A stretch of 39,301 nt of DNA from a virus, in the IMG/VR virus record IMGVR_UViG_3300037163_000032, positions 1 through 39,301 of that record, one strand, 5' to 3'. Both the position numbers and the translations under genes were made by a program. Within the stretch, counting starts at the first letter, position 1, and every line of letters starts with the position of its first letter. Below the pieces are notes generated by a model. The model did no database searches and had not been told where the DNA came from. It saw nothing but the letters and a program-made list of their open reading frames with translations. Shown piece after piece: positions 13,516 to 39,301 of this stretch.

Positions 13516-14382
13516 CTATTTTGCGGAAGCCCGGAATGACATCGGGATGCTTGACGCCTCTTCGACTGCCTCTTCCATCGTGTCAATCGTTCCATCGGTT
13601 AGGCTAAGCTCCTGTGCGTGGACACCGGTAAACGATTGGCCTTCCAACGCATCGGCAATAGGGGTCCGCTTCGCGGAGCATGCTTTGACAAATTCCGCTT
13701 TGATTTCGTCCACCTCGGCTTGAATCATCGCCCGCTCTTCGTCTGTCATAGATTTGAACGGGGCACCGGTGAGCTTGTATTTGCCAGCGCTGATTGCGTT
13801 GACTTTGACCCCGGCGGTCTTTAGCGCCTCAGTTTGATCGGTGTAGATCGCGTAGCACCCGACGTTGCCGACGTATGCGCTTGGGGCCGCCCATAGGATG
13901 TCACACTGGCTGGCCAGCCTGTAGGCTGCGGAGCAACATTGCTTGTCAACGTATCCAACGGTCGGCTTGGCGCAGTTGGCTATCATGTCGCCGCATTCGA
14001 GCATGCCCACGACTTCACCCCCTGGGGAACGGAAGTCAAAAAACAACACCTCGACATTGCCGTCGGCCTCGGCAAGTTCAATGGCTTCCATGATGTCAAC
14101 GTAATCGCAGCCGCCTAAGCAGGCTTTCTCGAACGAGTCAAGATGTTTGCCAAGAGCGCCATGCACGGGGATGATGGCGACGTTGCCGAATGTCCCTCCG
14201 CTCTCCTGCATTTGATCCGCGTCGTTGTCGGTCTTACCTGGTGCGTTTTCGTCCTCTATGAGGATGGCCCTCGGTTCGCCGTTCATGCGGGCCACGAGCA
14301 CGCGGGCGGCGCGCTCGGCGTATCCGATGTCAATGGCCAGCGGGCGGTTGAATAGCCGTGCGGCAATGTGTTGGTATTTCAT
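13516..14382 (-). CDS. Prohead protease, S49 (SppA/ClpP-fold, lambda gpC-like) family (288 aa)
   Basis: Motifs FDFRSPGGEVVG and CCSAAYRLASQCD...PSAYVGNVG are present. It is ATGA-coupled to the portal gene, as in lambda B-C. Confidence 0.85.
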   Translation of the reverse strand: MKYQHIAARLFNRPLAIDIGYAERAARVLVARMNGEPRAILIEDENAPGKTDNDADQMQESGGTFGNVAIIPVHGALGKHLDSFEKACLGGCDYVDIMEAIELAEADGNVEVLFFDFRSPGGEVVGMLECGDMIANCAKPTVGYVDKQCCSAAYRLASQCDILWAAPSAYVGNVGCYAIYTDQTEALKTAGVKVNAISAGKYKLTGAPFKSMTDEERAMIQAEVDEIKAEFVKACSAKRTPIADALEGQSFTGVHAQELSLTDGTIDTMEEAVEEASSIPMSFRASAK

Positions 14383-16166
14383 TCTGATTCCTTGTCAAAA
14401 TCGTCTTCTTCATCTGGTTCTTTTTCTTGAGTTGTACTTGAGCTTGATCCTTTTTCTCCCATCGTTCCATTTGGATTTTGCAACTCGATATTTGAACTGT
14501 CAGCATGTCCAAATATATTTGTGATGCTGCCCATTGGCTTCTGTAGCATACCCAATGCAATGGTTATCGAAATGTTATATTTTGTTGCTAGCAGAGCCGC
14601 GTCTTGCAACAGCTTGTCCGCACAATCAATTCTACTCTTTCGGACGTGCTCCGGTATGCCGCCGTTGCGTGAAATCACGATCTCGGGAGTTGTGATTCCG
14701 TTTTCTATTTCGCGGATGTCAACATCAGAATCGTACTTTGCGTCGGCGGTAATGCGCCGCTGGCTCTGATAGGTCCACGCTGGCCAGCTCTCGTCAAATG
14801 AAACGTCGCCGCGCTTGATGAACTTGGGGACGCGCCAGCCGTCCACTCGGGTCTGCCAAGGTACCAAAATCAACTCATGCCACTTGGACACCTCTTGATT
14901 GATCCTGGCCACAATAACGCGCATCGCGGCGCCGCTCTTCTTCGCGTCCAAAAAGTAATCAACCGACTGCCCCATTGACGCGATAGCCTCGCGCACGATT
15001 TTGTCATCCAAAGCTTGCTGATTTTCGCTTGGGCGGTCGGCAGTTATGGCTTCAATCTTCTGGTTTGTTCCGGCTTTAGTATACCAAATTTGCGCTCCCG
15101 TGATGATCTGCTTTGCTTGATGAACAAGATTGCCTTCGTCGTCTGCGTTTGGAATCGAGTTTTTGTTAGCCGATGTCGTTCGGATAATTGCCCTAGAAGG
15201 GTCCACAGTGCCAGTCTCATTTACAATATTGAATCCCATCGAAGCGGCGAGCTTCTGTATAACACGTTCCAGGTCGCGCCCCTCATGCACGTCCTGCATG
15301 GGCCACATGAGCGAAGTCAAGATCGGGAAGCCGCGAACTTGCCCGTCAAATTGTGGAATGAATGACGGGAACATATCGCGGGAAGAGATGTCTCGGTAGT
15401 TGCTAAGGTCGGCCTGATTTTCCGAGTAAACCCGGTAAGCGATTGGTCGGCTATACGAATTGACAATCACTCCGTCAATCAAACGCGCAAAGAACTCGAC
15501 GGGCTCAGTGTATGCCGTTCCGTAGCTCTCAGGGTCGGCGCTAATCGCATCTTCAACCAACTTGTCGTCGATAAACATCTGGTTGTTTTCAAGACGCACT
15601 TTGACTGCTATGATACCTGGAACATAGGGTGAGCCGATGCGGTGCGCTGGAATCATTTGAATCTGTGGATAGCCCCCCGATGTCTCCGTAAGTAAAGTGT
15701 ATGTCTCTCCGTCGGTAAGGCAAGCCGAAACGATTGTACGGCGTGCAGTCAAGAAAGTGTATGGCCACCCCTCGACGCGGCCGTACTTGTCATTGGACTT
15801 TAGCAGGGATTCCATTTCATCTCCCCAGGCCGCGTTCGGCCCGGCGTAAAGGCGACGCATGGCAGCGATGTTGCTTGTCAAGTCTTCAATTGCGGCTCTG
15901 AGAATGGGATTATTGATTGCCAGCCAGCGCCCCACCGACATCAGCACCCGGCGTCCGAAGTTGGTGAGGTTGCGATGGAAATCATAGTCCATCATCGGTA
16001 CGTACTGACGCCCGTCTGATTGATTCGCCGCCTGGAAGAGCCGGGAGCCGGTCAGCATCGACGCGGCGGATTGCTGGGAAGGAGAGAGGATGTTGACCGG
16101 CGCTACGCTGGCCATCTTTTGCTGCGACTCCCATTTCGATTCCAGGAATGTCTTCGGGGGTTGCAT
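14379..16166 (-). CDS. Portal protein, lambda-type (595 aa from ATG 16166)
   Basis: About 600 aa ORF between the gpW-like gene and the S49 protease gene, with an acidic C-terminal tail. The ATG at 16166 follows the upstream stop after 1 nt. The track start at 16211 overlaps the upstream gene by 44 nt. Confidence 0.8.
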   Translation of the reverse strand: MQPPKTFLESKWESQQKMASVAPVNILSPSQQSAASMLTGSRLFQAANQSDGRQYVPMMDYDFHRNLTNFGRRVLMSVGRWLAINNPILRAAIEDLTSNIAAMRRLYAGPNAAWGDEMESLLKSNDKYGRVEGWPYTFLTARRTIVSACLTDGETYTLLTETSGGYPQIQMIPAHRIGSPYVPGIIAVKVRLENNQMFIDDKLVEDAISADPESYGTAYTEPVEFFARLIDGVIVNSYSRPIAYRVYSENQADLSNYRDISSRDMFPSFIPQFDGQVRGFPILTSLMWPMQDVHEGRDLERVIQKLAASMGFNIVNETGTVDPSRAIIRTTSANKNSIPNADDEGNLVHQAKQIITGAQIWYTKAGTNQKIEAITADRPSENQQALDDKIVREAIASMGQSVDYFLDAKKSGAAMRVIVARINQEVSKWHELILVPWQTRVDGWRVPKFIKRGDVSFDESWPAWTYQSQRRITADAKYDSDVDIREIENGITTPEIVISRNGGIPEHVRKSRIDCADKLLQDAALLATKYNISITIALGMLQKPMGSITNIFGHADSSNIELQNPNGTMGEKGSSSSTTQEKEPDEEDDFDKESE

Positions 16167-16167
16167 A

Positions 16168-16470
16168 TCAGTATCCCCCCCATCGCGCCCCCTCGGGCAA
16201 ACCAACGACACCTCCGAATCCTACGTTGACAACGGATTGCTCAACCGCCCATTTGTAGGGGTACTTCGTTGGATCGATTACGTATAGCGCGTAATCAACC
16301 CGCTTCAGAGTGAGTTCCGGAGTCGCGGTCGGCTGGTTGCTAGCATGCACGTCTGCCGTGCCTGCCCCTGTCGTGTGCTTGTGCTCGGCGATCTCGAGTT
16401 GCAGCTTGCGGCGCATTGCAAGCAACTCGTTCTCTGTCCAGCCTTGAAAATAATTCGGTAATTGCAGCAT
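16168..16470 (-). CDS. gpW-like head-tail joining / head completion protein (100 aa)
   Basis: Small ORF directly upstream of the portal gene, as in the lambda A-W-B order. Its N-terminal helix (ENELLAMRRKLQLEIAEH) resembles the gpW N-terminus. Confidence 0.45.
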   Translation of the reverse strand: MLQLPNYFQGWTENELLAMRRKLQLEIAEHKHTTGAGTADVHASNQPTATPELTLKRVDYALYVIDPTKYPYKWAVEQSVVNVGFGGVVGLPEGARWGGY

Positions 16471-16493
16471 CTCGAAAAACGCTGCTTCATCAC

Positions 16494-16527
16494 CAAACGA
16501 AAAAACCCGGCTTTATTTTGCCGGGTT
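16494..16527 (-). terminator. Intrinsic terminator closing the moron operon
   Basis: The minus-strand RNA reads AACCCGGC-AAAAUAAA-GCCGGGUU followed by UUUUCGUUU. It lies 24 nt after the HTH gene stop. Confidence 0.8.
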
Positions 16528-16550
16528 GTCAAACTTATTTTACTGCTGAA

Positions 16551-16784
16551 TTATTTTGCGATTGCTTTTTCAACGGCCCGAAGCGTTAGTCCGCGCGGGC
16601 CGGAGGTTCCGGCCTCCCAGTTCTGGTATTGCCGGATTTTCACGCCGAATCGTGCGGCGGCGGCGGTCTGCGTAAGCCCGGCGCGGATGCGCCAAGCGCG
16701 GAGGGATTTTGAAATTTCCATAAAAATTAAAAGCCCGTCGGATGGCGGGCGGTTGGACGTGGATTGTGCGATGGTATCTGTCAA
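16551..16784 (-). CDS. XRE-family helix-turn-helix protein (77 aa; alternative start at ATG 16721)
   Basis: LRAWRIRAGLTQTAAAARFGVKIRQYQNWEAGTSGP matches the classic Cro/C1-type HTH signature. Confidence 0.8.
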   Translation of the reverse strand: MTDTIAQSTSNRPPSDGLLIFMEISKSLRAWRIRAGLTQTAAAARFGVKIRQYQNWEAGTSGPRGLTLRAVEKAIAK

Positions 16785-16888
16785 TAACCGTAATCTTCGG
16801 CGTTTAATTGTTCTGCTTCAAATGCTGCTTTTACAGCATCATTGAATGAATCCTCTCCGCTACCCTGCGAGCCATTCGTTTCAATCCG

Positions 16889-16912
16889 CGCCCCGGCCCG
16901 AAGACCGGGGCG
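16889..16912 (-). other. Very stable RNA hairpin with a UUCG tetraloop
   Basis: The minus-strand RNA reads CGCCCCGGUC-UUCG-GGCCGGGGCG (10 bp including one G-U pair). The G-U becomes a C-A mismatch on the plus strand, so the structure is specific to the minus strand. No U-tract follows it. Confidence 0.6.
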
Positions 16913-16986
16913 ACACTAATTCTTGATGTTTCATTTTGTTGCTTTGTTTGCAAGTCAGGATAAACCTTACACCAGTATTGACTTGG

Positions 16987-17217
16987 TTATGAGTTTGTTA
17001 TTTCGTAGTTCCCATCCATAAACTCTCGAACAAAACACTGGTCGGATTCCGGGAGCATGTCTATTTGATCTTCCGTTATTTCATCATGTCCCACCGGACC
17101 TCCATTACTTTCCATCTTCCCATTGGGAAAGAAAGTCAGACATTCATCTGATCGAAACTCAGGGTTAATTTTAAGGTTTCCATCACAATCAATAAGCGGC
17201 CATTGAATTTTTCTCAT
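16987..17217 (-). CDS. Small acidic hypothetical protein (76 aa from ATG 17217)
   Basis: MRKIQWPLIDCDGNLKINPEF... The track start at 17235 is a GTG inside the 42-bp repeat. The region is A+T-rich. Confidence 0.55.
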   Translation of the reverse strand: MRKIQWPLIDCDGNLKINPEFRSDECLTFFPNGKMESNGGPVGHDEITEDQIDMLPESDQCFVREFMDGNYEITNS

Positions 17218-17230
17218 ATTTTTTACCGGT

Positions 17231-17272
17231 CTCACAGCCGTTCGCCCTGGGGTTCCGCCGGGATCGCGGGTT
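17231..17272 (-). repeat. 42-bp GC-rich start-proximal element, copy A
   Basis: ctcacagccgttcgccctggggttccgccgggatcgcgggtt is identical to 17845-17886. It ends 13 nt upstream of ATG 17217. Confidence 0.9.
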
Positions 17273-17289
17273 CTTTTTTTGCATTTTAG

Positions 17290-17442
17290 TTATTTTTCCT
17301 GAACGACGACCCGATAAGAGAACGGGTGCTTAGGGTCTGTTAGATATTGAGCCTCTTTTTCAGCTTTGGCCTTGCTGTCGAATGAGTACCTGACTTTTTT
17401 GCCATCATTGTTGCGGACAATAGTCCAAATTGTTTTTTTCAT
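17290..17442 (-). CDS. Small basic hypothetical protein (50 aa), below the ORF-track cutoff
   Basis: Hand translation gives MKKTIWTIVRNNDGKKVRYSFDSKAKAEKEAQYLTDPKHPFSYRVVVQEK*. It fills the gap between two moron ORFs. Confidence 0.45.
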   Translation of the reverse strand: MKKTIWTIVRNNDGKKVRYSFDSKAKAEKEAQYLTDPKHPFSYRVVVQEK

Positions 17443-17483
17443 ATTTTGAGTTTTAATGTTGTCATTTTATTTTCCATATTAAA

Positions 17484-17840
17484 TTAAGCTCCGAATTTTG
17501 AATATTTGTTAATGTCCCCCGACCTTTGCACCTCAGCCGTGAAACAGTGGCTCCAAATTCCACCACCTTTTTCTGTGCCATCACCTTTATCAACATCAAC
17601 CATAACCTCGGATTTCTGCATCAGGGATTCAACTTTAGTGAACTCCGGTTGGGTTAGTGCTATACACCCGACTACTCCAACAAACTGTTTTTCCGGGCCG
17701 AAAGCTGGTTTCCGTTCCACCATTCCGGTGGAACATTTTTTAATCCCATCGACCGAAATAAAAGCCGTTCCAGATCGAATTTCAATTTCAACCAGTTTTC
17801 CGGCGAGAGTCGTTTTTGTAAAAATCATATTTTGTTTCAT
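17484..17840 (-). CDS. Small hypothetical protein (118 aa from ATG 17840; alternative in-frame ATG at 17897)
   Basis: MKQNMIFTKTTLAGKLVEIEIRSG... The track start at 17939 lies upstream of the candidate promoter. ATG 17840 lies 4 nt past the 42-bp element (13 nt in copy A). Confidence 0.55.
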   Translation of the reverse strand: MKQNMIFTKTTLAGKLVEIEIRSGTAFISVDGIKKCSTGMVERKPAFGPEKQFVGVVGCIALTQPEFTKVESLMQKSEVMVDVDKGDGTEKGGGIWSHCFTAEVQRSGDINKYSKFGA

Positions 17841-17844
17841 CGGC

Positions 17845-17886
17845 CTCACAGCCGTTCGCCCTGGGGTTCCGCCGGGATCGCGGGTT
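17845..17886 (-). repeat. 42-bp GC-rich start-proximal element, copy B
   Basis: Identical to 17231-17272. The two copies are 614 bp apart in direct orientation. Confidence 0.9.
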
Positions 17887-17917
17887 GAGAGCTTCATGCT
17901 CCCTGTTTCATGATTAA

Positions 17918-17946
17918 ACAATACGCAACGCTTGCGCATCGCGCAA
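17918..17946 (-). promoter_or_regulatory. Candidate sigma70-type promoter with an overlapping palindromic operator for the moron operon
   Basis: The minus strand reads TTGCGC-N17-TATTGT. The -35 element is half of the perfect palindrome TTGCGC-GAT-GCGCAA (17932-17946), and a third CGCAA half-site lies at 17925-17929. Confidence 0.35.
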
Positions 17947-18066
17947 CAAAAAAGTGAAGATTTTTTACGATTTTCTTTTTACAGAGGGGTTTTACCTATG
18001 AAGAATTGGAGAAAAATTGCGAAAAGACAGAGGTTTAGGCGGTGTTTTAAAACCGAAAACTGAAAT

Positions 18067-19923
18067 TTACATCGCAGTTTTTTCGTTTGCTGTCTGCTCG
18101 CTCTGCAACTCGAACGGGTCCGGCCAGACTCCGGCCAGCGTGGCGTAGAGGCAAGCCATCTTGAGTAGGTCGCGGGCGTGATTTGCTTTGGCGTGCTTAG
18201 TGTCAACTGGTTGCCACTGCCAAATGAACTTGCCTTGCTTGCGGACGCGCACTTTTATTTCCGAATTCACTTGCTCCCAAAATTCGCGCTCAACCGGATC
18301 GGACGGGTCAAGGTCGCTCTCAATGCTCTCAGAGTCAATAAGCCCTTGCACCTTGTCATTCATCGTGTCCGAAGAAAAACGGATCAACGGCGTTGTTCCG
18401 AGGGGTGTCTCTGAGTCGCCAACGGTCTGCATATACGATCTTTGCACCTGGAATGATGAACCATCCCCGCGCTTTACTGTCTGAGCGAAACTGTCAACAA
18501 AGCCAACACCTTTCAGCGCTACCCAGTCATATTTGATACACGCCGCATAAACGCCTCGGTCGCTTTTGCTTTGGAATCCCGAATCAATCCCGGGGCGAAA
18601 CGATAGCGAGTCAATCCCAAGGCCGATTTTCCATTTGACTTGCACGGCCAAAATATCGTCAAAGCTGTGGACTTTCCCGAACCAGAGTTTGCGCGCCCTA
18701 CCCGCTTTGTTGAACGCAATCACGAGCACCCAAAAGACATCCTCTTGCTGACGGTCTATCAACAGGAAGCGGGCCACCTCGTCCGGCCATGTGCCGTCGG
18801 CCTCGAACACCACCCGCTTGTAATCCCTCTCAACGTCAAGCGCGTAGCGGCTCGATGCCTGGTTCGCAAGCCGTTTTTGGATGAACGTGCGGGTCGGCCT
18901 TTCGTCACGAACAGATGCCCAGGTGTTGCGAGCGGTTAGCCAATCCATGACTTCATAATCCCATCGCTCTGTCAGAAACGCATTCCACGCATAGGAGTGA
19001 CGCTCCGCGCTCTTGAGTGTGCCGACGCTCTCCCATCTCCCGGTCTGCAACCACGTCTCGCGGAGGACGGGTGACCACTGGTGATGGTGTTGACAATGGA
19101 AACACTCGAACGCGATGGTGGGCACAACTTTGTCAATCACCCATAGCCCGCGGTCGTCTTTGTGTGATTCCCAAACAATGCCCCACCGCGTCCCGTCATC
19201 TCGGCGCCCCTGAAACAAAAGCTCCTGATATTGGCCGCATGCTTGGCAGGGAACGAACCACCGGAACTGCTCTCCACTCTCGTGTTGTATATCCCAGACA
19301 TCTCCCTCGGTTGATCCCTGCGCGGTGCATAGCAGCTTGTCAATGCCCATGCGCCGGGCGTCGCCAAGCCGCGCTTTGATCTCGCCGATGTTCTTTGCAA
19401 TCTCTTCCATCCACATCTCGTCAATGTGCATGTACCGGTAGCCTTTGGCCTGCAACTCTGAGAGTGAAGGGCCGGAAACGTATATGCTTTGGCCGGACGG
19501 CAGGATGATTTCGTTTTCCCGCGTCTTGTGCCGGTCGGTACTCTTGATCTCATCGAACCCCGGGATCGACCGGAGCAGCTTGAACGTCTTGGTCTCGGCT
19601 TCCTCGTGGGCCACCTTCTTGCTTTGGAGCACAAGCTTGAAAGTCCCAGGATCGTTGAACACTTTGTGCGCCAAGAAAATCTGGCCAATGAGCGACTTTG
19701 CGCTTCGCGTCGGCGCGCGCACGTTCACCTCGTGAACTGTGTTTACTTGCAAGTCCGTGAAGATCGACTTGAAGTGCGGCGAGTGCGCAACGGAGAACGG
19801 CCCGGTGATTGTCCACGGCGGAAACAGGCGGACGTGTTCATGCGCCCATTCCCACATTGGCCTACGGTCACGGCGGGCAAAGAGAGCCGACAGCGATTTT
19901 TTAACTGTTTGTTTTACACCCAT
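18067..19923 (-). CDS. terL: Terminase large subunit, GpA (lambda A) family (618 aa)
   Basis: About 620 aa. Shows a Walker-A-like motif (RAPTRSAKS), a Walker-B-like motif (YRYMHIDEMW) and the GpA-typical Zn-ribbon stretch (FVPCQACGQYQELLF ... FECFHCQHHH). It follows the small subunit gene. Confidence 0.85.
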   Translation of the reverse strand: MGVKQTVKKSLSALFARRDRRPMWEWAHEHVRLFPPWTITGPFSVAHSPHFKSIFTDLQVNTVHEVNVRAPTRSAKSLIGQIFLAHKVFNDPGTFKLVLQSKKVAHEEAETKTFKLLRSIPGFDEIKSTDRHKTRENEIILPSGQSIYVSGPSLSELQAKGYRYMHIDEMWMEEIAKNIGEIKARLGDARRMGIDKLLCTAQGSTEGDVWDIQHESGEQFRWFVPCQACGQYQELLFQGRRDDGTRWGIVWESHKDDRGLWVIDKVVPTIAFECFHCQHHHQWSPVLRETWLQTGRWESVGTLKSAERHSYAWNAFLTERWDYEVMDWLTARNTWASVRDERPTRTFIQKRLANQASSRYALDVERDYKRVVFEADGTWPDEVARFLLIDRQQEDVFWVLVIAFNKAGRARKLWFGKVHSFDDILAVQVKWKIGLGIDSLSFRPGIDSGFQSKSDRGVYAACIKYDWVALKGVGFVDSFAQTVKRGDGSSFQVQRSYMQTVGDSETPLGTTPLIRFSSDTMNDKVQGLIDSESIESDLDPSDPVEREFWEQVNSEIKVRVRKQGKFIWQWQPVDTKHAKANHARDLLKMACLYATLAGVWPDPFELQSEQTANEKTAM

Positions 19924-26028: not shown

Positions 26029-26649
26029 CTATTTCCTTCTGGCGAGTTGCTTTAGCGCGTTCCCAAAAGCCCGCTCGCCTATTTCTTCCCACTGGGCGGC
26101 TGTGAACGTCGTGTTGGCAAGAACGGTGATCTTGTCGCCTTCAATGACAAAGCGTTCGGCGGCGCGAGACGGGGTAACAACGGTGGGCTTCGTGGCAATT
26201 GCCTTAAGCTGCTCATCCGTGTTGCGCACCTGATTGTCCGGCGTGAAAACGACTGCAATTTCTTGTTTTGACAATTGCGTCACTTTCTTGTCATCAACGT
26301 AGGTTTTGCCGTTGGCGACAGACACGACTTTAATCGTACCTTCGTATAGCGCCTTTTGCTGGCTCGCTGGCAGGAGTGCAATGCGTTTGGCGGCAGGCGA
26401 TGAATCAAACAAAAGGGCTTCGTGCATGACGCCGCGCCCTACGCGCTCAAGATTAGCTAACAGGTTTGCGCTGATTTCCGGGTGTTCCTTTTGAATGTCT
26501 CGGTAAGCGTTCGGATTTGCGTCAACGATCAAGCAAAGCATATCGCACGCTTTTTTGATTGCGTCGCGCCCGGCTTGCAGAGCGGCTGCGAACTGGTTGA
26601 TGGTAGGGGTGTTTTGAGTCTTGTCAACTGACGTATTGTGTGTGTTCAT
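26029..26649 (-). CDS. Hypothetical protein (206 aa)
   Basis: Minus-strand ORF, ATGA-coupled upstream. No motif was recognised. Confidence 0.55.
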   Translation of the reverse strand: MNTHNTSVDKTQNTPTINQFAAALQAGRDAIKKACDMLCLIVDANPNAYRDIQKEHPEISANLLANLERVGRGVMHEALLFDSSPAAKRIALLPASQQKALYEGTIKVVSVANGKTYVDDKKVTQLSKQEIAVVFTPDNQVRNTDEQLKAIATKPTVVTPSRAAERFVIEGDKITVLANTTFTAAQWEEIGERAFGNALKQLARRK

Positions 26650-27392
26650 GATTTTGTGTTTAGGATTGTTGATAGGTTGAGTGCTTGAAGGAAATGGATT
26701 GTCTGCAAATTGGGTATTTTGTTGGATTGCGCGGCGTTGTAGGCGGCATTGTAGGCGCGTTTCTCTTCACGATGCGCGGCGTGGTAGGCGGCATCGTAGG
26801 CGCGGTGCTCTTCCCGATGCGCGGCATCGTAGGCGCGTTTCTCTTCACGATGCGCGGCGTTGTAGGCGGCATCGTAGGCGCGTTCCTCTTCACGATGCGC
26901 GGCGTGGTAGGCGGCATTGTAGGCGCGTTTCTCTTCCCGATGCGCAGCATCGTAGGCGGCATCGTAGGCGCGGTGCTCTTCCCGATGCGCGGCATTGTAG
27001 GCGCGTTTCTCTTCCCGATGCGCGGCATCGTAGGCGGCTTGGCGGGCGCGGTGCTCTTCACGATGCGCGGCGTGGTAGGCGCGTTTCTCTTCCCGATGCG
27101 CGGCGTGGTAGGCGGCATTGTAGGCGCGTTTCTCTTCACGATGCGCGGCGTGGTAGGCGCGTTTCTCTTCCCGATGCGCTGCATCGTAGGCGGCATTGTA
27201 GGCGCGTTTCTCTTCCCGATGCGCTGCATCGTAGGCGGCGTGGTAGGCGCGTTTCTCTTCCCGATGCGCGGCGTGGTAGGCGGCTAGGTAGGCGGCGCGG
27301 CATTGTTTACAGCTTTGTTTATTTGAGAACTTCTCTACTGGCAACAACCTGCCGCACTTTGCGCACTGCTTGAATTGTTGGTTGGGTGTCAT
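26646..27392 (-). CDS. Zn-ribbon protein with a long (AAY)AAHREEKRAY tandem repeat (248 aa)
   Basis: N-terminal CAKCGRLLPVEKFSNKQSCKQCRAAY is followed by about 16 units of 11 or 15 aa (AYxAAHREEKR / AYxAAYxAAHREEKR). Confidence 0.7.
   Translation of the reverse strand: MTPNQQFKQCAKCGRLLPVEKFSNKQSCKQCRAAYLAAYHAAHREEKRAYHAAYDAAHREEKRAYNAAYDAAHREEKRAYHAAHREEKRAYNAAYHAAHREEKRAYHAAHREEHRARQAAYDAAHREEKRAYNAAHREEHRAYDAAYDAAHREEKRAYNAAYHAAHREEERAYDAAYNAAHREEKRAYDAAHREEHRAYDAAYHAAHREEKRAYNAAYNAAQSNKIPNLQTIHFLQALNLSTILNTKS
26730..27296. repeat. In-frame 33/45-bp tandem repeat array
   Basis: Units such as gcgcgtttctcttcacgatgcgcggcgtggtaggcggcattgtag are repeated with small variations across about 570 bp. 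Confidence 0.9.
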
Positions 27393-31923: not shown

Positions 31924-32844
31924 TTATTGCCGTCCAAAAGCATAGAGGCTTGATATTTCGTCCGTTGTCAGTGTTCGAGTCCAGATTGACAAGTCATCAA
32001 TCCAGCCTGTGGAATATAGTAAGGATGATCCGTAATGGTTCCCCAAACAAAGGACATCTGATCCCGAGGCAGTCCAAGCGGGAACCGATAGACTGGGAGG
32101 CGCCGACGCTCCATTGACCCTGGCGGAAAGGGTCGTTCCAGCGCGAGTCAGGACAATGTGGTACGCGGTATTGGATGCGAAGTTTGCCGAGGGATAAAAC
32201 TCGTACAAGTTATTTGAATTGCCAATGACATCCACACGGTCGGACCGGATGTATATTCCAAGCAAGTCGCCATTGGCAGTCGTGGTTTCACAGACACCCA
32301 GCACATAGTTTGACGCAGCAAGCGTGTCAAGGCTTACCCAGAATGACAACGTCCAGTTCGATCCGCGAAGAGCGTTTGCGCACGCCGTGGCATTGACCAA
32401 GGAATACCGGTTTGCCAAACCGGCGCAGTAAACCGCGCCATTCGTATAGGTTGTGCTTGAACCGGGGGAAAGAGCATAGGAAGCAACGTCGTCAACAAGC
32501 GAGCCATTAAAGCGCCATCGCGCCGTCATGCTCGCGGTGTCAATCCATGAGGCCACCGGCTGGTCAAACATCGCCGGATCGTTGAGCGTGAGCGGTTGGG
32601 TATGAGCCGTTGCCGGCAACAGCAGCAAGCCTGCCAGCACGAGTGCATCCATGCCGCCGCTCGAATGATGCGGATAGCACGCGGAGCAATCCTTGCGCAG
32701 GCAATCCGCGCAGAGCGAGTTGTGTTCCTCTTTGGGCGGCTCTTCGATCTCCGGCGGGCCAAAGCGCTTGCCCAGCAGACATCCGATGGCGAACATTGCG
32801 GCTGCCACGACTAAGAAAATAATGACTACTGTGATTGCTTGCAT
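31924..32844 (-). CDS. Membrane protein with a Cys-rich loop and a C-terminal LamG (concanavalin-like) domain (306 aa)
   Basis: In order: TM1 ([19 protein letters not shown]), [22 protein letters not shown], a second hydrophobic segment ([18 protein letters not shown]), then LamG hallmarks ([51 protein letters not shown]). Confidence 0.7.
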
Positions 32845-34883
32845 ATTGCTGAGACGAAAGTTCCTGTTGATTTGACAGAGATAAGCATGTTGTGCCCATT
32901 CGTGAGAGTCATCGTTGTCCCTCCGTTATCATACCGAGTCCATCCGCTGGGTAATGTGATTGTGCGATTTGCTCCGTTGGCCCGCAGTTCATACGCCATT
33001 GCCCCGGTGCCAGAGACTCCGCTAAAAGTAAAATTCCCGCCCAAATCTCTGTTTTGATACACCGAATTGAACGAAACTGTCTCAGACCAGTCGCCGGACG
33101 TGCTTCCATTATCCATCGCAAAAGCTGAACCATGCAGTCCTGTCAACTGACTGGCGTCTCCCGTGTATGATCCAGAAATGTTGAAATTCCCTGCTGCTTG
33201 CCAGGTTCCAGCCAACCTATTATAATATATAGTCCATGTGTTGCCTTGGTAAAAATAAGACAAGTTTGTCGCATAAGTCGCGCTCGTGGAAAAGTTAGCG
33301 CTCCCAGAATAATCTGACCAATAAGCGTTCGTGGCGTAGGCCGCATTTGTTGCTACTGGTCCCGTCGCGCCCGTGGCCCCGGTGTTGCCTTGCGGTCCAA
33401 CCGGACCTTGTGGTATTGTGAAATCAATCACTGCCGATGTTGAAGTGCCGCTGTTGGTCACGGCAGCATTTGTCCCTGCCCCAACAGTTGTGACTGTTCC
33501 AACCGAGAACGTCGCGTTGGCGCCTGAGTCGCCTTTGATTCCCTGTGGAATCGAGAAATTGACGACGGCGGCCGAAGAGGAACCTGAGTTGCTCACAGTC
33601 GCGTTTGTGCCCGCTCCAACTGTTGACACTGTGCCGATCGCAATTGTTGCCGCGCTGCCCGTGGCCCCGGTCGCCCCGGTCGCCCCGGTATTCCCTTGTG
33701 GTCCTTGACTGCCAGTCGCCCCGGTCGCGCCTTGCGGCCCAGTCGCCCCGGTCGCTCCGGTGTCACCCTTGGCGCCTTGCGGACCCGTCGCTCCAGTGTT
33801 TCCTTGTATGCCTTGCGGCCCGACCGGGCCTTGCGGAAGCTTGATGTCAAGCACCGCCGCCGTTGCCGTGCCTGAGTTTGTCACAACCGCGTTCGTTCCA
33901 GCGCCTACTGTTGACACGTTGCCAATCGCAAATGTTGCGTTGGTTCCCGAGTCGCCTTTGGGGCCTTGCGCGCCTGTCGCGCCGGTTGCGCCCTGCGGGC
34001 CTTGGCTGCCCGTGTCGCCTTTCGCGCCGTTCGCACCCGAGTCGCCCTTGGGGCCTTGCGCTCCCGTCGCGCCTTGAGGACCTGTCGCTCCATTTGTGCC
34101 GTTGACTCCATTCGTGCCATTGACACCGGCAACGCCCTGGATGCCTTGCGGTCCCTGGCTTCCCGTGTCGCCTTTGGCCCCAGTCGCCCCGGTCGCGCCA
34201 GCAACACCCTGAATTCCCTGCGGCCCCTGAGCGCCGGTTGCGCCTGTTGCGCCTTGGGGTCCGGCCGCTCCATTTGTGCCGTTGACTCCATTCGTGCCAT
34301 TGACACCGGCAACGCCCTGGATGCCTTGCGGTCCCTGGCTTCCCGTGTCGCCTTTGGCCCCAGTCGCCCCGGTCGCGCCAGCAACACCCTGAATTCCCTG
34401 CGGCCCCTGAGCGCCGGTTGCGCCTGTTGCGCCTTGGGGTCCGGCCGCTCCGTTTGTGCCGTTGACTCCATTCGTGCCATTGACACCGGCAACGCCCTGC
34501 GGGCCTTGAGCGCCGGTTGCGCCCGCCGCCCCAGTGTTGCCTTGCGGGCCTTGAGCGCCGGTTGCTCCCACAGCTCCTTGCGGGATTGAGAATTGGAGTT
34601 TTAAAGACTTCGCATCACCAAGATTTGTGACGGCAGCATTCGTTCCGGGACCGACCGTGACCGTGTTGGTTACTGTTACCGTTATTGTGTTCGATACGCT
34701 GTTGATCTGCGCCACAATCGCCGCGTTTGTCTGCGCGAGTTGGTTTGTGGTCGCCAGCCCGTTTGCCGAGGCGAAGTTGGACGGCGCAACCGAGCGTAAT
34801 ACGTTGTTTGTTCCAACGGTGACGGTGATGCTCTGCGAGTATACGTTACAACAAAGCATTGCAAAGAGCAGTATATATTTCAT
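32826..34883 (-). CDS. Collagen-like (G-X-Y) fibre protein with a signal-like N-terminus (685 aa)
   Basis: [17 protein letters not shown] is followed by several blocks of GxY triplets ([25 protein letters not shown]...). These are interrupted by TVGAGTNA(A/V)VTNSG segments. The C-terminal domain is globular. Confidence 0.85.
34086..34499. repeat. Perfect 180-bp tandem duplication plus a 54-bp partial third copy, inside the collagen region
   Basis: 34086-34265 is identical to 34266-34445. The partial copy at 34446-34499 differs at one base. Confidence 0.95.
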
Positions 34884-35494
34884 ATTTGTCCTATGTCTGA
34901 GAGCCTGGGCGCGGGATTCCCGTCCTCCCCTTCAATGATGTCGAGCTGATACCAAAGCGCATTTTTACTCCATTGGAACTGCAACGGGCGGGAAAACCGT
35001 ATAGCACTGCCCGTGTCGTAGATTGGGAGCACCCCAGGGGACGGCGCACCGCCGATACCTGACTCCAAGACGGTCACGGGGATTGAAGCGACTGGCGATG
35101 GCACGGCGTTTGAATCCACAATGAATACAACCAGCAACGCATCGAACCTGCCAATGCCGATCTCTGTTTGATATGGTAGCAGGTCGATTGCAGCGTTGAA
35201 CTTTGAAGAGTCAAGAGAATCCCAATCGCCTTGGGAAATCACGTTTATGGCTGGCGCATACCATGGGCCGGACAGGTAGGCTTCGGCGCATGGGTCGCTA
35301 GCCGACTTGAAGCCGATGCCAATTTGCGCGACGCCAGACAGGTCGCCTGCGATTGCTCCCGCGCTTAAAAGGCCGACCTCAAAGCGCACTTTGGAAGCTC
35401 GGTAGAACGCGATGCTCCTGCCAGTGAGGACGTTGGTGATTCCGTCGCCTACGCCGTCGATTGGTATTGCTATACGATGTCGCAGAACTACCAT
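34880..35494 (-). CDS. Hypothetical fibre-module protein (204 aa), paralogue of 35498-35956
   Basis: Blocks shared with its neighbour are [11 protein letters not shown] / VRIEIGLYSSG and [11 protein letters not shown] / AVIPVTVLSSG. Confidence 0.6.
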
Positions 35495-35497
35495 TCG

Positions 35498-35956
35498 TCA
35501 CACACCTGAGCTTAGTACGGTCACGGGTATGACCGCAATGGGGTTGATGTTGCCCAATGCGTCTATAGTGTATACTACTAACGCGGCTTGAAACTTGTTC
35601 GCAATACCGATGTTGGTCTGCGCTTGCGAAAGCGTGAATGCAGCGTGGTAATTGGCCGGGTCGCCAGCGGTCCACTGTGGGTCTGTAAGGGTGTTTGTCG
35701 GAGCGGCTGGCGTCACGTTTGTTGCCAGCCAAGTTCCCAAAATAGCGGCGTCTTGAAACCCGCAAGCGATTGTTGACACTCCGGTGAAGTCTGCCAATAT
35801 AACTCCGCTGGAGTACAATCCGATCTCGATCCGCACAATAGACTTGCGGTAAATTGACGGCGGATTTGTCAACGTGTCGGCTCTGTTGTTGACCGTAGCG
35901 CCAGGGGACGTCAGGTCAATTTGAAGCCTCAGCCTGTTGGTTGGGATTTGTGACAT
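35498..35956 (-). CDS. Hypothetical fibre-module protein (152 aa), paralogue of 34880-35494
   Basis: See the shared blocks listed for 34880-35494. It lies 3 nt upstream of its paralogue. Confidence 0.6.
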   Translation of the reverse strand: MSQIPTNRLRLQIDLTSPGATVNNRADTLTNPPSIYRKSIVRIEIGLYSSGVILADFTGVSTIACGFQDAAILGTWLATNVTPAAPTNTLTDPQWTAGDPANYHAAFTLSQAQTNIGIANKFQAALVVYTIDALGNINPIAVIPVTVLSSGV

Positions 35957-35974
35957 TATATTAATTTCCAGTCG

Positions 35975-38137
35975 TCAAAATTTCATATTATCCTCAGCCC
36001 AGGAAGCTCGTAGAGGACTGGCGTATGGTCCAATCCTGTCAAACGGGATGTTGAAGAACCCGGTGGACATAGTAGGAGAGCCGTCTAACAGCCGATAATA
36101 GCTGTTGGTCGCACGCATGAAACGCGGGTCAGCAATGATTGAATTCCTGTCAGGTCCAATGCTTTGCCATGTCGACCACGCAATGGTTGTGCTTGTTCCA
36201 GACAGGGTCCTGCCAGCGATAATGTCAGTGCCGCCCGCATAGATTATGTTCTTGTCCCATTCGTTGTGTTCCGTGTCAGTATCGGTCAAATCATACAATT
36301 TGGCGGCAGTGTTAGTATATGACACAATATTGTGGGTGAATTCGTTGCTGGTCATTATCAAACCATTCGGAAGCACCACATCTTCCGGGCTAACTTGCAG
36401 CCCGCGAAACGACGCCCAAGCCTCCTGTCCCGTCATTATGCTGTAGTTTGACAAGAGTGTCGGCAATAGGGCGGACCAGCCTGCGGGATAGCCGTAAAAG
36501 CGCACTTCCTCGTTCCCAACGTCCAGGACGATATTGTTATTCGCGTGGCATTCCAACGCTCCGTTGAACATAATTCCAGCCAGGGAGCATCTATCTATGA
36601 CGTTACCAAGGACATCGACTCCCACGGATTGATTATCAATATACACCCCATAAGCCGCTTTTGGCGTTCCGCGAACGCCGCTTGAAAACCCATATCCAAG
36701 ACTCCCGTGGATATGGTTAAATTGTATAACGCTGCCTCTGGAACGAACCCAGTCTCCGCCTTCGGTGTAAATTGCCCCAGTATCGTCGGTTTCCAAATTC
36801 ACATCGTGAATATAGTTGTATTCAACTACGATATTATTTCCATCAAATCGGATTCCCGCGCGCGGACAACTGTAAATCAAGTTGTGGCTGGCCCGATGTC
36901 CAACCCCCTCCAAAAGAATGCCACTGCCACTTTTGGCAAAGACACCGGGTTGAAAAATTAAATTATTTTCCGCAACATTGTTGGCGCTGGTCAGATTGGT
37001 CCAGTTACCACCGTATATGGTTATCCCACCAGCGCCGGTTTTGGAAATGTCATTGCCATAAACCAAACTGTTTGTTGCATTGTAACAACTTACACCACTG
37101 CCGTTGAAATCTCCAACATTCGTGATTGTGTTGCCGATAATCTGGCAGCCAGTTGTGTAATATAGAAAAACCCCATGACCGACTGAACATTCCAATTGAA
37201 AGCCCTTAAAGACCACGTTGGAAGCTCCAAATCCCATCTCAACCACATATTGGGCTATTGGCGCATAAGCAAGATGTTGTCCATTCATGTTTTGTGGCCA
37301 CCAGTAAAGGGTCCATGTTGTTTTGTCCAAATACCACTCTCCAGGACTGTCCAACTCCTCGGCAACGTTCTGGATAAAATACCGATCACCTGGGCGTATC
37401 GCATAATCAGTGCTGTTACTCAACGTAATGAGACGGTTTACTGTGTCAATTGAAGCCACCGGAATTATGTTGTTCCACCAATTATATCTTGGAAAAATGA
37501 AGACCTCCGCCTCTTGCGGGTTGGCCCAACTGCGGACGTCGCCCACTTTGTATTTGAATTGGGTCATGCTATCGGTTGGAAGATCAATTCCCATGTTTGT
37601 CACCGTTCCATCCACATAGGACCAACCTGCACCGTATGGGTCGTTGGTGTCGAAATTCGGATAGCGGGCCAGGATTTGGCGCTGGCCTGACGAGATCAAT
37701 TGATGAAACGCTATTCCACTGTAACCATCCGCAGCAACGTCAGCTTTCAGAATCTGCCCCTTCCACGGGACAAAGTTGGTAATGGGCATACCTCCAATCA
37801 GGCAAGGGTGTTCCCCGACATACGCGCTGTAGGTGATCGGCGTGTTGGATGAGATTCCTGAGTCTTGTGAGAGAATGGAGAATGCGTTTGTTCGATAATA
37901 AGTGCCACCGCGAACATAGACTGTCGCTCCGTTGGTCAGCGGCGATTGTGCTTTTCTTGTGCGCAACTCAGTTCGTGCCCTCTCCAAGGTTGCAAAAGGA
38001 CCGTCTGTTGCGTTTTCATTTGGAGCAGCCAATGTCCCGCTCCAATTGTCATTACCATTGGTCGCAACATAGACCCGCACTTGAGCAGTGCAAATCCATG
38101 ATGACATAATCATCAGCAAAACAAACAACCTTCTCAT
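35975..38137 (-). CDS. Right-handed parallel beta-helix (pectate-lyase-fold) protein with a signal peptide, a candidate depolymerase/tailspike (720 aa from ATG 38137)
   Basis: MRRLFVLLMIMSSWICTAQ-VRVYVATNGNDNWSGT has a DUF1565-type start. PbH1-like turns recur (GNTITNVGDFNGSG, VYGNDISKTGAGGITIYGG, NNLIFQ, HNLIYS, YNYIHD, FNHIHG). The track start at 38266 overlaps the upstream gene by 122 nt. Confidence 0.8.
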   Translation of the reverse strand: MRRLFVLLMIMSSWICTAQVRVYVATNGNDNWSGTLAAPNENATDGPFATLERARTELRTRKAQSPLTNGATVYVRGGTYYRTNAFSILSQDSGISSNTPITYSAYVGEHPCLIGGMPITNFVPWKGQILKADVAADGYSGIAFHQLISSGQRQILARYPNFDTNDPYGAGWSYVDGTVTNMGIDLPTDSMTQFKYKVGDVRSWANPQEAEVFIFPRYNWWNNIIPVASIDTVNRLITLSNSTDYAIRPGDRYFIQNVAEELDSPGEWYLDKTTWTLYWWPQNMNGQHLAYAPIAQYVVEMGFGASNVVFKGFQLECSVGHGVFLYYTTGCQIIGNTITNVGDFNGSGVSCYNATNSLVYGNDISKTGAGGITIYGGNWTNLTSANNVAENNLIFQPGVFAKSGSGILLEGVGHRASHNLIYSCPRAGIRFDGNNIVVEYNYIHDVNLETDDTGAIYTEGGDWVRSRGSVIQFNHIHGSLGYGFSSGVRGTPKAAYGVYIDNQSVGVDVLGNVIDRCSLAGIMFNGALECHANNNIVLDVGNEEVRFYGYPAGWSALLPTLLSNYSIMTGQEAWASFRGLQVSPEDVVLPNGLIMTSNEFTHNIVSYTNTAAKLYDLTDTDTEHNEWDKNIIYAGGTDIIAGRTLSGTSTTIAWSTWQSIGPDRNSIIADPRFMRATNSYYRLLDGSPTMSTGFFNIPFDRIGPYASPLRASWAEDNMKF

Positions 38138-38144
38138 ATGCTGA

Positions 38145-39301
38145 TTATCTCTGCGTTCCGTACCCATCGTTGTAAAGGATTTTAACTTCATCGCCCGAGA
38201 TCGCTCGATTATAGACGCGCACATCGCTAATTTTCCCAGGGAAATACGATCCGGCATCACTTCCAATAGTAAAGGGTGTTGCGACGTTTCCTAATGCTCC
38301 ATTAGCGGAAACTGCATTGGAGGCGTCCCCATTGTTAAAGTAACTCTTCAAAGTTGTTCCATCATAAGTCATTGACACAAAACACCATTTGGCAGTTGTG
38401 GTGTCAGGTGCATAGACATATGAGTGGAATACTGTACCCGCAGAGTTCCGAAACCCAAATTCAAAACCCGTATTCTCCAGGCGATAAACATAGAAATCAG
38501 CCACGCTGCCATCTCGCATGCCAAGAATACTTTTGTAATAATCGTCAGCATTCGGTCTGATCCATGCGGTTAATGAAATCCCGCTTGCGCTGCTAAGCAT
38601 GTTTGCCGTCAAGGGTGTGGTAACAGTTGTGTTCTGCCCATCGAATACGCCCACGTATCCTCCCCTCCCAGCCGAGTAATAACCGGATTCGCCCGTGGCA
38701 TTGCCGGACCATGTTCCATTCCTACTAAAAATGCTAGAATCTATAGAATTAGAACCGCTGCCTTCATTGAGTTTCCACCAGCCGAACAGTCCAGGAACAC
38801 TCCCCCATCCGGTTAGATAAGAAATGTAATTGGAAAGCGTCGTCAGCGAATTGGCAGTGGCCGCGTTGGTCTGGACAATAGCATTGCTCAAAGCAAGATT
38901 GGTCAAGCCCAGAGCGGTGAGCAGCAAATTGGACGCGCTTCCAATCTGCGATTGCAATGCCGCGTTGGTCTGGATGATGGCGTTGCTCAACACCGTATCC
39001 TGGATATTAGTTAGCCCTCTTCCATTCCCAGCCAATTCTGCAAAATAGTTCTGAGTCGAATCTGCTCTAAGGTTCCAAACACTTCCATCGTCAATGGCGT
39101 TATAGGTTGTTCCATTGACTGTCACATTGTTAAGGTGGATGGTTCCGTTAGTGGCGTGCCACTCGTTGGCGTAACAATATAGGGTGTTGGTGTTGTTTAT
39201 GCTGCAATTTTGAAGATAGATGTTCGTAAATGTCCCAGGAAGTGAAGATGCATATACAGAAAGGAACTGAACGAATCTTTGGTCAGAGTGGATGTCCGAG
39301 A
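38145..39301 (-). CDS. Tail fibre / tailspike-like protein, C-terminal 376 aa of the junction-spanning gene (see 1-1383). It ends in a LamG domain.
   Basis: The frame is open from 39275 to the stop at 38145; the track's apparent start at 39125 is an internal GTG. Contains SNAI(V/I)QTNAA repeats and then a LamG domain (WWKLNEGSGSNSIDSS, ISLTAWIRPN, FVSMTYDGTTLKSYFNG, FPGKISDVRVYNRAISGDEVKILY). Confidence 0.85.
   Translation of the reverse strand, partial: SDIHSDQRFVQFLSVYASSLPGTFTNIYLQNCSINNTNTLYCYANEWHATNGTIHLNNVTVNGTTYNAIDDGSVWNLRADSTQNYFAELAGNGRGLTNIQDTVLSNAIIQTNAALQSQIGSASNLLLTALGLTNLALSNAIVQTNAATANSLTTLSNYISYLTGWGSVPGLFGWWKLNEGSGSNSIDSSIFSRNGTWSGNATGESGYYSAGRGGYVGVFDGQNTTVTTPLTANMLSSASGISLTAWIRPNADDYYKSILGMRDGSVADFYVYRLENTGFEFGFRNSAGTVFHSYVYAPDTTTAKWCFVSMTYDGTTLKSYFNNGDASNAVSANGALGNVATPFTIGSDAGSYFPGKISDVRVYNRAISGDEVKILYNDGYGTQR
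39276..39301. repeat. Terminal direct repeat, copy 2 (identical to 1-26)
   Basis: Exact 26/26 match to the window start. Confidence 0.9.

Follow-up and report, generated by a model that had tools for sequence, protein, structure and literature searches.

A solitary CRISPR repeat inside a candidate anti-CRISPR moron of a phage probably infecting Verrucomicrobiota

The acr-aca operons are composed of small, variable anti-CRISPR (acr) genes followed by an autoregulatory helix-turn-helix (HTH) gene, the products of the latter being grouped into the families Aca1-Aca13. The lambdoid morons, associated with Hendrix and colleagues, are reportedly units of a promoter, one or more genes and a terminator, placed between conserved late genes. 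In the 39,301-nucleotide (nt) virus record IMGVR_UViG_3300037163_000032 from IMG/VR, the whole length of which was analysed (the window), a minus-strand segment of ~1.6 kb separates the large terminase gene (terL) from a small gene at the gpW position, and shares features with both. The closest described systems also include RNA anti-CRISPRs (Racrs). Solitary CRISPR repeats of phages inhibit systems of types I-F, I-C, I-E and V-A and are enriched within 1 kb of acr genes (PMC10651486). RacrIF1 binds Cas6f and Cas7f, giving an aberrant subcomplex (PMC10651486), while in a Bifidobacterium pseudocatenulatum prophage a homologue of acrIC5 and RacrIC1, 11 nt downstream of it, share one bicistronic RNA (Camara-Wilpert et al., Nature 2023, PMC10651486). 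The viral CRISPR-like regulatory RNAs (Cracrs) carry a spacer-like segment with at least 9 matches, proximal to the protospacer-adjacent motif (PAM), to the promoter of a host cas or toxin gene, and this segment usually lies between degenerate repeats (Liu et al., bioRxiv 10.1101/2024.10.29.618823). The segment of the window is proposed, with a probability of about 0.6, to be an anti-CRISPR moron of acr-racr-aca type directed against a verrucomicrobial type I CRISPR-Cas system, and the phage, an uncultured tailed one, probably infects Verrucomicrobia.

A first-pass annotation of the sequence had read the segment as a counter-defence moron of acr-aca-like layout. This reading is supported by three independent lines of evidence, i.e. 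the identity of a hairpin as a solitary CRISPR repeat, the occurrence of homologues beside HTH genes in other elements, and the absence of the cassette from the corresponding junctions of related phages. The minus-strand features that had been listed (a promoter with a palindrome, three small open reading frames (ORFs), a hairpin, an HTH gene and a terminator) are all present in the sequence. In the direction of transcription they follow one another as a 120-nt gap, the palindrome promoter, ORF1, ORF2, ORF3, the hairpin, the HTH gene and the terminator, after which a 100-residue ORF begins; all genes in this region of the window are on the minus strand.

The hairpin had been described as capped by a UUCG loop, which is correct (-24.7 kcal/mol, z-score of -2.6, folding also in its native sequence context), but its identity had been overlooked: it is close to certain, from sequence and structure comparison, that the hairpin is a copy of a CRISPR repeat. 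The repeat, GTCGCCCCGGTCTTCGGGCCGGGGCGCGGATTGAAAC, occupies positions 16878-16914 of the minus strand, is 37 nt long and forms a 10-bp stem closed by the UUCG loop. A lenient scan gave a full-length match to the Rfam family CRISPR-DR9 at 16878-16916 (minus strand, 31.1 bits), the sole Rfam match in the whole window at E ≤ 0.05. The Genome Taxonomy Database (GTDB), with one genome per species, was scanned with the pattern CCCCGG-N5-9-CCGGGG-N3-GGATTGAAA, describing the stem and the tail. Nearly all of the 60 loci obtained are CRISPR arrays of Verrucomicrobiota (Verrucomicrobiae, Limisphaerales, Opitutaceae, Chthoniobacterales and Akkermansia), and the repeat family is almost confined to the type I loci of this phylum. 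The repeats of the host arrays are 37 nt long and consist of GTCGCCCCGG, 7 variable nt and CCGGGGCGCGGATTGAAAC, with spacers of ~35 nt. The phage copy is identical at 36 of 37 positions to the array repeats of six loci. It differs by 1 nt from the ...TCCTCGGG... repeat of L057 and L033 (Limisphaerales and Verrucomicrobiales), and by 1 nt from the ...TCTTCGGA... repeat found in L028 (Opitutaceae) and in the metagenome arrays L075, L078 and L081, the last three having 27-48 repeats and the same UUCG loop as the phage copy. Among 17 repeat variants 26 columns are invariant, and all 26 are retained in the phage copy; their stem is 99.4% paired and contains three pairs that covary. With a covariance model derived from the host repeats the phage copy attains 61 bits (E = 7e-16), the rest of the window staying at the level of noise. 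Because the hairpin proved to be a solitary CRISPR repeat, the best-supported candidate effector of the segment is an RNA and not the three small proteins.

The repeat is unique in the window at up to 3 mismatches. No degenerate second repeat was found on either side, as the flanks score like shuffled sequences and the covariance model gives no further match there. Two candidates near the repeat, a hairpin with UUGAAGC ~35 nt downstream and AAUGAAAC 13 nt upstream, were judged to be due to chance. The repeat is intergenic, between the stop of ORF3 (16987) and the start of the HTH gene (16721), and its reading along the operon is GTCGCC...ATTGAAAC, the orientation found also in the host arrays downstream of cas2 and the leader. 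The terminator scan found no terminator between ORF3 and the repeat.

In respect to the acrIC5-racrIC1 locus, the likeness lies in the presence of one sense repeat of host type in an intergenic region of a phage without cas genes, with a small orphan ORF on the same strand a few tens of nt upstream; the repeat family has the ...GGATTGAAAC tail, and the adaptation module of the host is of I-C type. The differences are that neither this repeat family nor Verrucomicrobiota, the presumed host phylum, has been among those tested (nor was the phage repeat found in the accessible part of the solitary repeat unit (SRU) table of PMC10651486), that here the repeat lies between the acr-like ORFs and the aca-like HTH gene and so divides a pair whose members adjoin each other elsewhere, and that the upstream ORFs are unrelated to AcrIC5 or any known Acr, the activity being one that we infer. 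As an SRU/Racr candidate, the repeat would act in the following way. The minus strand would be transcribed from the palindrome promoter (~17946-17918) to the terminator at 16527-16494, possibly with a contribution from a second, weak promoter just before the repeat. The transcript would hold one sense repeat of host type, folded into a 10-bp hairpin like genuine repeats. By analogy with the characterised Racrs, the Cas5/Cas6-type nuclease and Cas7 of the host would bind this decoy, and the bound Cas proteins would form non-targeting or aberrant subcomplexes, titrated away from the CRISPR RNAs (crRNAs) that target the phage, by which CRISPR immunity would be inhibited. One or more of the small proteins, with ORF3 as the best candidate, may act as protein Acrs alongside the RNA, and the Aca-like HTH protein would bind dyads of the form TTGC-N7-GCAA and shut the promoter after an early burst.

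The same repeat could alternatively be the 5' part of a Cracr, or viral crlRNA, in which the AUUGAAAC handle and the sequence downstream of it would guide Cascade to repress the promoter of cas genes or of a CRISPR-guarding toxin. The likeness to Cracrs is that an RNA derived from a phage repeat, often encoded next to acr genes, could load host Cas proteins, and viral crlRNAs have been described for types V-A, I-F, I-E, I-C and I-B, often beside acr genes (bioRxiv 10.1101/2024.10.29.618823). The repeat is followed by ~130 nt and then a terminator-like hairpin, and the hairpin with UUGAAGC ~35 nt downstream would also suit such an RNA. The locus differs from Cracrs in that neither side shows a second or degenerate repeat and no target match was found: when the 35-60 nt downstream of the repeat were compared with 420 kb of verrucomicrobial CRISPR-cas loci, which did not include the cas operon promoters, the matches did not exceed chance, and the 9-10-nt seed matches all fall within coding sequence and have inconsistent PAMs. 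A guide function of this kind is thus considered rather unlikely. The terminator-like hairpin itself, called by the terminator scan at 16723-16750 of the minus strand, is weak and consists of GCCCGccatccgaCGGGC followed by the U-tract UUUUAAUUUU, just before the ATG of the HTH gene. It is possibly an attenuator of HTH expression or the 3' end of the repeat RNA.

The genes adjoining the matching host arrays encode a Cas8-like protein, Cas7, Cas3, Cas4, Cas1c and Cas2. The Cas1 is the Cas1c of type I-C (420-426 bits, the cutoff being 385) and the Cas3 is an HD-helicase. In the case of Cas7 the Pfam match is Cas_Cas7 (6e-38), and the top NCBIfam match, Csd2/I-C, is under the cutoff. A 747-residue protein beside the arrays has no family match and is presumably the large subunit. 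In the loci L013 and L054 the order is large subunit, Cas7, Cas3, Cas4, Cas1c, Cas2 and array, with cas3 between cas7 and cas4; L054 additionally has a gene for a four-helix bundle between cas4 and cas1. Judged from these genes, the host system would be of type I with an I-C adaptation module, and the subtype was left as 'I-C-like' because the gene order departs from canonical I-C and no repeat-processing subunit was seen. Akkermansia (L014), a genus typed as having I-C and II-C systems (PMC9241678), carries a repeat of this family.

Lone copies of the repeat family occur also in the verrucomicrobial genomes L014, L024, L026, L046 and L080, several of them as a conserved leader with one repeat (orphan or minimal arrays). 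Three metagenome-assembled genomes labelled as Bifidobacteriaceae (L037, L045 and L060) carry the verrucomicrobial repeat, L045 together with a leader of verrucomicrobial type, and these contigs are probably mis-binned.

The spacers of the arrays, compared with the window and with the related phage loci, gave only chance-level matches of 13-16 nt, and no array containing phage sequence was found. The latter result bears on the idea, put forward in earlier work on viral solitary repeats and mini-arrays (cited in PMC10651486), that the repeat is a substrate for recombination with host CRISPR arrays, or the remnant of a phage mini-array used against competing elements. An identity of 36/37 over 37 nt could support recombination, and the locus has in common with the mini-CRISPR arrays of phages and archaeal viruses a repeat of host type on a virus without cas genes. 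However, at least two repeats with a spacer are required for a mini-array, while the locus has a single repeat and lacks a spacer-repeat unit; the annotated parts of the window showed no integrase, and the lack of arrays with phage sequence likewise speaks against an exchange. Both forms of this explanation are regarded as highly improbable.

The conserved neighbourhood of the protein genes provides the second line of evidence. ORF3 (16987-17217, minus strand, from the ORF list) encodes a strongly acidic protein of 76 residues, with an isoelectric point (pI) of 4.2 and a net charge of -10. Its single homologue, P0003 (59% identity), is also strongly acidic, and in the contig L064 it is encoded 4 nt upstream of a 72-residue HTH protein that is 39% identical to the HTH protein of the window. 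ORF3 and the HTH gene thus form a conserved pair, into which, in the window, the repeat and ~265 nt have been inserted. As the pairing of ORF3 with an HTH gene is conserved elsewhere, ORF3 is the best candidate for a protein Acr.

The pairing, with its 4-nt spacing in L064, could also be that of a HigBA-like type II toxin-antitoxin system, in which the toxin gene comes first and the XRE antitoxin gene second; the HTH protein indeed has weak NCBIfam matches to antitoxin families (HipB and MqsA types, E about 1e-3). These matches are far under the cutoffs and reflect the generic HTH fold, however, and ORF3 has no match to a toxin family in Pfam, PHROGs or NCBIfam, while its pI of 4.2 is unlike that of the RelE/HigB-type toxins. 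A toxin-antitoxin pair is therefore scarcely probable at all.

ORF1 (17484-17828, minus strand, pI 7.7), here regarded as a further Acr candidate, was correctly noticed as a gene, but its length is neither the 118 residues given before nor 151: the alignment of homologues places the start at the ATG at 17828, which gives 114 residues. Its N-terminal region is predicted to be all-beta, and the C-terminal motif GIWSHC[FY]TAEV.R.GDI is conserved in the two small homologues, P0011 (49% identity) and P0012 (37% identity), that were obtained in an exhaustive search of 1.84 billion representatives; a word-indexed search of 5.8 billion proteins found only ORF1 itself. P0011 is encoded by the first of three genes in a unit, followed by one small ORF and, as the last gene, an HTH_31 gene, in an early-gene region of a different 56-kb phage contig. 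The homologues of ORF1 and ORF3 thus lie upstream of small HTH genes in unrelated phage contigs. Matches of the ORF1 C-terminus to giant proteins (P0013 and P0014) are located in Ig-like/Calx-beta repeat proteins and were treated as spurious. ORF2 (17290-17442, minus strand), which was also called as a gene by the Joint Genome Institute (JGI), encodes a basic protein of 50 residues (pI 9.9).

The XRE-type HTH gene (16551-16721, minus strand) matches HTH_3 at 2.2e-9, above the Pfam cutoff, as well as HTH_31, and its PHROG match is to transcriptional regulators. The type of the gene had been recognised before, but not its probable length. The longest ORF has 77 residues, from the TTG at 16784, and the start is most likely the ATG at 16721, giving 56 residues, because the alignment to the HTH protein beside the ORF3 homologue begins at residue 23. 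The protein is basic (pI 11.6) and is a candidate Aca-like autorepressor. In the JGI annotation the place is taken by a 127-residue plus-strand ORF at 16462-16845, antisense to the HTH gene, which the JGI gene caller missed. From the above-cutoff HTH_3 match and the homologue in L064, the real gene here is judged to be the minus-strand HTH gene; it is not in the public protein sets because the antisense ORF was called instead.

The resemblance to the acr-aca operons is accordingly one of small orphan ORFs with a small HTH gene behind them, on one strand and in one unit, with a promoter overlapped by inverted repeats (a candidate operator), with a patchy presence among relatives, and with upstream ORF families that recur beside HTH genes in other elements. 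The differences are that the HTH protein is without a named Aca family, that no ORF is homologous to a validated Acr, and that the cassette lies among late packaging genes and not in the early region.

The third line of evidence is the accessory status of the segment. The cassette is flanked upstream by the gpA-type TerL gene (18067-19923, Pfam GpA_ATPase, 2.5e-18), and downstream by the 100-residue ORF (16168-16470), which abuts the gene of a lambda-family portal protein (14379-16211, Phage_portal_2, 2.6e-21), all on the minus strand. The label gpW for the 100-residue ORF holds as to position, as a relative has a homologous small ORF between its TerL and portal genes (30% identity, E = 4e-10), but not as to identity, since the Pfam scan gave no gpW match. 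A comparison of this junction with relatives, suggested by the first-pass annotation, was made by tracing TerL homologues of 44%, 37% and 36% identity to their contigs, and in all three relative groups both the cassette and the repeat are absent. The gap between TerL and portal in the relatives is 20-310 nt and holds from zero to two small ORFs: in one TerL is followed by 307 nt and the portal gene, in another by a 68-residue GerE-type HTH protein, an 89-residue ORF and the portal, and in the third by an 84-residue ORF and the portal. The junction looks like a hot spot of recurrent insertion, since one relative carries the GerE-type HTH insert there. This insert, at 2300-2506 of L069/L070, is a 68-residue HTH gene of GerE/sigma-70-region-4 type, in a phage the TerL of which is 37% identical to that of the window.

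The composition of the segment deviates from that of its surroundings, with a G+C content of 0.40-0.45 over 16800-18000 and of 0.52-0.59 in the flanks. The A+T-richness had been ascribed to the whole ~1.6 kb, and this is valid only for 16790-18066, the region of ORF1-3 and the hairpin (42.8% G+C, compared with 53.4% for the whole window); the HTH gene has 60% G+C, unlike the A+T-rich remainder. With its own promoter (seen at the sequence level only), its own terminator and its deviant composition, the segment fits the classical definition of a moron. It resembles the described morons also in being inserted between genes that are adjacent in relatives, and differs from them in having four ORFs and a non-coding RNA element in place of a single gene.

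The candidate operon promoter lies at 17918-17946 of the minus strand, with the -35 hexamer TTGCGC at 17946-17941, a spacing of 17 nt and the -10 hexamer TATTGT at 17923-17918. The perfect palindrome TTGCGCGATGCGCAA (also given as TTGCGCgatGCGCAA) at 17946-17932 covers the -35 element, which constitutes its left half, and a second dyad, CGCAAgcgTTGCG, overlaps the palindrome. The previously described elements, their spacing and the palindrome are thus confirmed, but the hexamers agree with the sigma-70 consensus at only 7 of 12 positions, for which reason the promoter was not called by the promoter scan. The motifs TTGTTGC, CAAGCGT and GTATT are found also upstream of ORF1 homologues in other contigs (p about 0.002-0.003), and the promoter of P0012 has all three in common with that of the window. 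In the contig L082, a promoter-like region of ~90 nt (TTATTCGCTA...GTTGCAA...CCAAGCG..GGTATT.T) is present in two copies, at 255-348 and 825-911, which precede two different small genes, one of them being the ORF1 homologue P0012. This arrangement looks like a row of small-gene cassettes with one type of promoter in common.

The TTGC-N7-GCAA pattern, to which the HTH protein may bind, occurs only twice in the 39-kb window, both times within the cassette, namely at the promoter of the operon and 24 nt before the repeat; the pair is suggestive only, because the pattern was noticed after the fact. The second dyad, TTGCAAACAAAGCAA (16953-16939), is overlapped by a weak promoter-like pair of hexamers, read by eye (TTGCAA, 16 nt, AAACAT; element at 16926-16953, minus strand), which has 7 of the 12 consensus positions, was not called by the scan and ends ~12 nt before the repeat. 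Speculatively, it is a separate promoter or operator for the repeat RNA. The intrinsic terminator at 16494-16527 (minus strand), as proposed in the first-pass annotation, is confirmed both by folding and by the terminator scan, and closes the cassette.

As the repeat is inserted exactly between the acr-like and the aca-like genes, a cut at the repeat would part the acr message from that of the repressor, and the repeat might serve as a Cas-dependent switch within the operon. In such a CRISPR-sensing feedback loop the crRNA-processing nuclease of the host would cut at the repeat, and the repressor message would then bear a crRNA 5' handle as a possible assembly site for Cas5 and Cas7; where CRISPR-Cas is active, less repressor would be made and the anti-CRISPR promoter would stay on. 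This further role is thought to be very unlikely.

Several observations weigh against an anti-CRISPR moron. In the case of the repeat, the CRISPR-DR9 score of 31.1 bits is under the gathering score of 45 for that family, no array with a repeat identical to the phage copy was found, and a lone repeat of the same family is present in a verrucomicrobial chromosome (L048, 3960-3991, minus strand), without a leader, between dnaJ/rsmE-like genes and a methyltransferase gene; since this copy sits among housekeeping genes, lone repeats are not always counter-defence elements. In respect to the host, the effector subunits do not reach the family cutoffs and the genes are not in the canonical I-C order, none of the 765 spacers (640 + 125) of the fetched verrucomicrobial arrays matches the phage, and the host is predicted only by way of the repeat. 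Both candidate promoters are weak consensus matches. ORF1-3 have no match in Pfam, PHROGs or NCBIfam (the family libraries to which the searches with ORF2 were confined), and ORF1 and ORF3 gave no tblastn match in isolated phages. The structural comparison proposed by the earlier annotation was negative: with AlphaFold models of ORF1 and ORF3 (predicted local distance difference test (pLDDT) values of 69 and 87, respectively), Foldseek found no match at E < 0.1 in the PDB for both or in BFVD for ORF3. No ORF thus resembles a known Acr, in sequence (ORF1-3) or in predicted fold (ORF1 and ORF3). The HTH protein is of generic XRE type, with matches only to HTH_3 and HTH_31, an RstR-like match under the cutoff and weak matches in the PDB, and was not assigned to a named Aca family.

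Some of these points would suit an ordinary moron, with a role in superinfection exclusion, regulation or another kind of anti-defence, in which the repeat is a recently captured relic or a terminating or stabilising hairpin that does not act on CRISPR. ORF1-3 are without recognisable function, the spacers of the fetched arrays do not match the phage, the lone repeat of L048 stands in a housekeeping context, and relatives bear other small inserts at the junction, such as the GerE-type HTH gene of L069. The cassette was found on five contigs from three JGI metagenome samples, 100% identical over the parts compared, and these contigs therefore lack the divergence by which selection on the repeat could be seen. 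On the other hand, a relic would not be expected to be intact at all invariant positions and in the stem, to be in sense orientation, and to be inserted exactly between ORF3 and the HTH gene, a pair contiguous elsewhere; published solitary units are, moreover, mostly functional and cluster with acr genes. An ordinary moron is for these reasons regarded as unlikely.

What is new here, with the anti-CRISPR moron as the preferred reading, is the repeat family together with the presumed host phylum, the two orphan protein families beside HTH genes, the placement of the repeat between acr-like and aca-like genes, and that of the cassette between terL and the portal module. The Verrucomicrobiota comprise Akkermansia-like gut bacteria and abundant lineages of soil and freshwater. 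In the anti-CRISPR literature examined no anti-CRISPR for this phylum, RNA or protein, was found. By naming a target, the type I, Cas1c-type CRISPR-Cas of Verrucomicrobiota, the repeat turns a guess from layout into a specific, testable prediction, and it also provides a host prediction for an otherwise unplaceable metagenomic phage. The three orphan proteins are candidate founders of new Acr families and the small HTH protein is a candidate new Aca, while the repeat between acr-like and aca-like genes offers a natural construct with which to ask if Cas processing feeds back on anti-CRISPR regulation.

Self-comparison of the sequence revealed a direct repeat of 52 nt on the minus strand, one copy (17835-17886) directly before the start of ORF1 and the other (17221-17272) directly before that of ORF3. 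The two leaders have an identical core of 42 nt and about 70% G+C, and precede ORF1 and ORF3 in different reading frames. They are absent from the homologous loci, in which ~10 nt separate the -10 box from the ATG, are not significantly structured, and were not found elsewhere in searches of isolated phages, IMG/VR and verrucomicrobial CRISPR-cas loci. The reverse complement of the leader aligns to the CRISPR repeat better than shuffled sequences do (p about 0.0025), and the predicted leader-repeat RNA duplexes have energies of -46 and -43 kcal/mol for the two copies. By their weak complementarity to the repeat the leaders might interact with the repeat or with host pre-crRNA and tune the translation of ORF1 and ORF3. 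As a dedicated antisense 'anti-repeat' the leader was rejected, because 5-13 other sites of the window pair as well and the host-repeat covariance model does not score the leader.

The window holds phage genes for packaging, portal, tail and replication functions, and its annotation revealed no cas family. Comparison with isolated phages and IMG/VR gave no DNA match to the window, no IMG/VR relatives and no match to the repeat; the TerL is less than 25% identical to that of any isolated phage. A tandem array at 26728-27284 lies within a minus-strand ORF of 248 residues (26646-27392) and has periods of 33, 45 and 78 nt, with ~13 copies and 75-90% matches, which implies a protein built of repeats of 11-15 residues. 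The region 31924-39125 is likely a cluster of tail-fibre or receptor-binding genes, with a 685-residue protein of collagen triple-helix repeats, a 763-residue beta-helix protein and two Laminin_G_3 (concanavalin-like) proteins.

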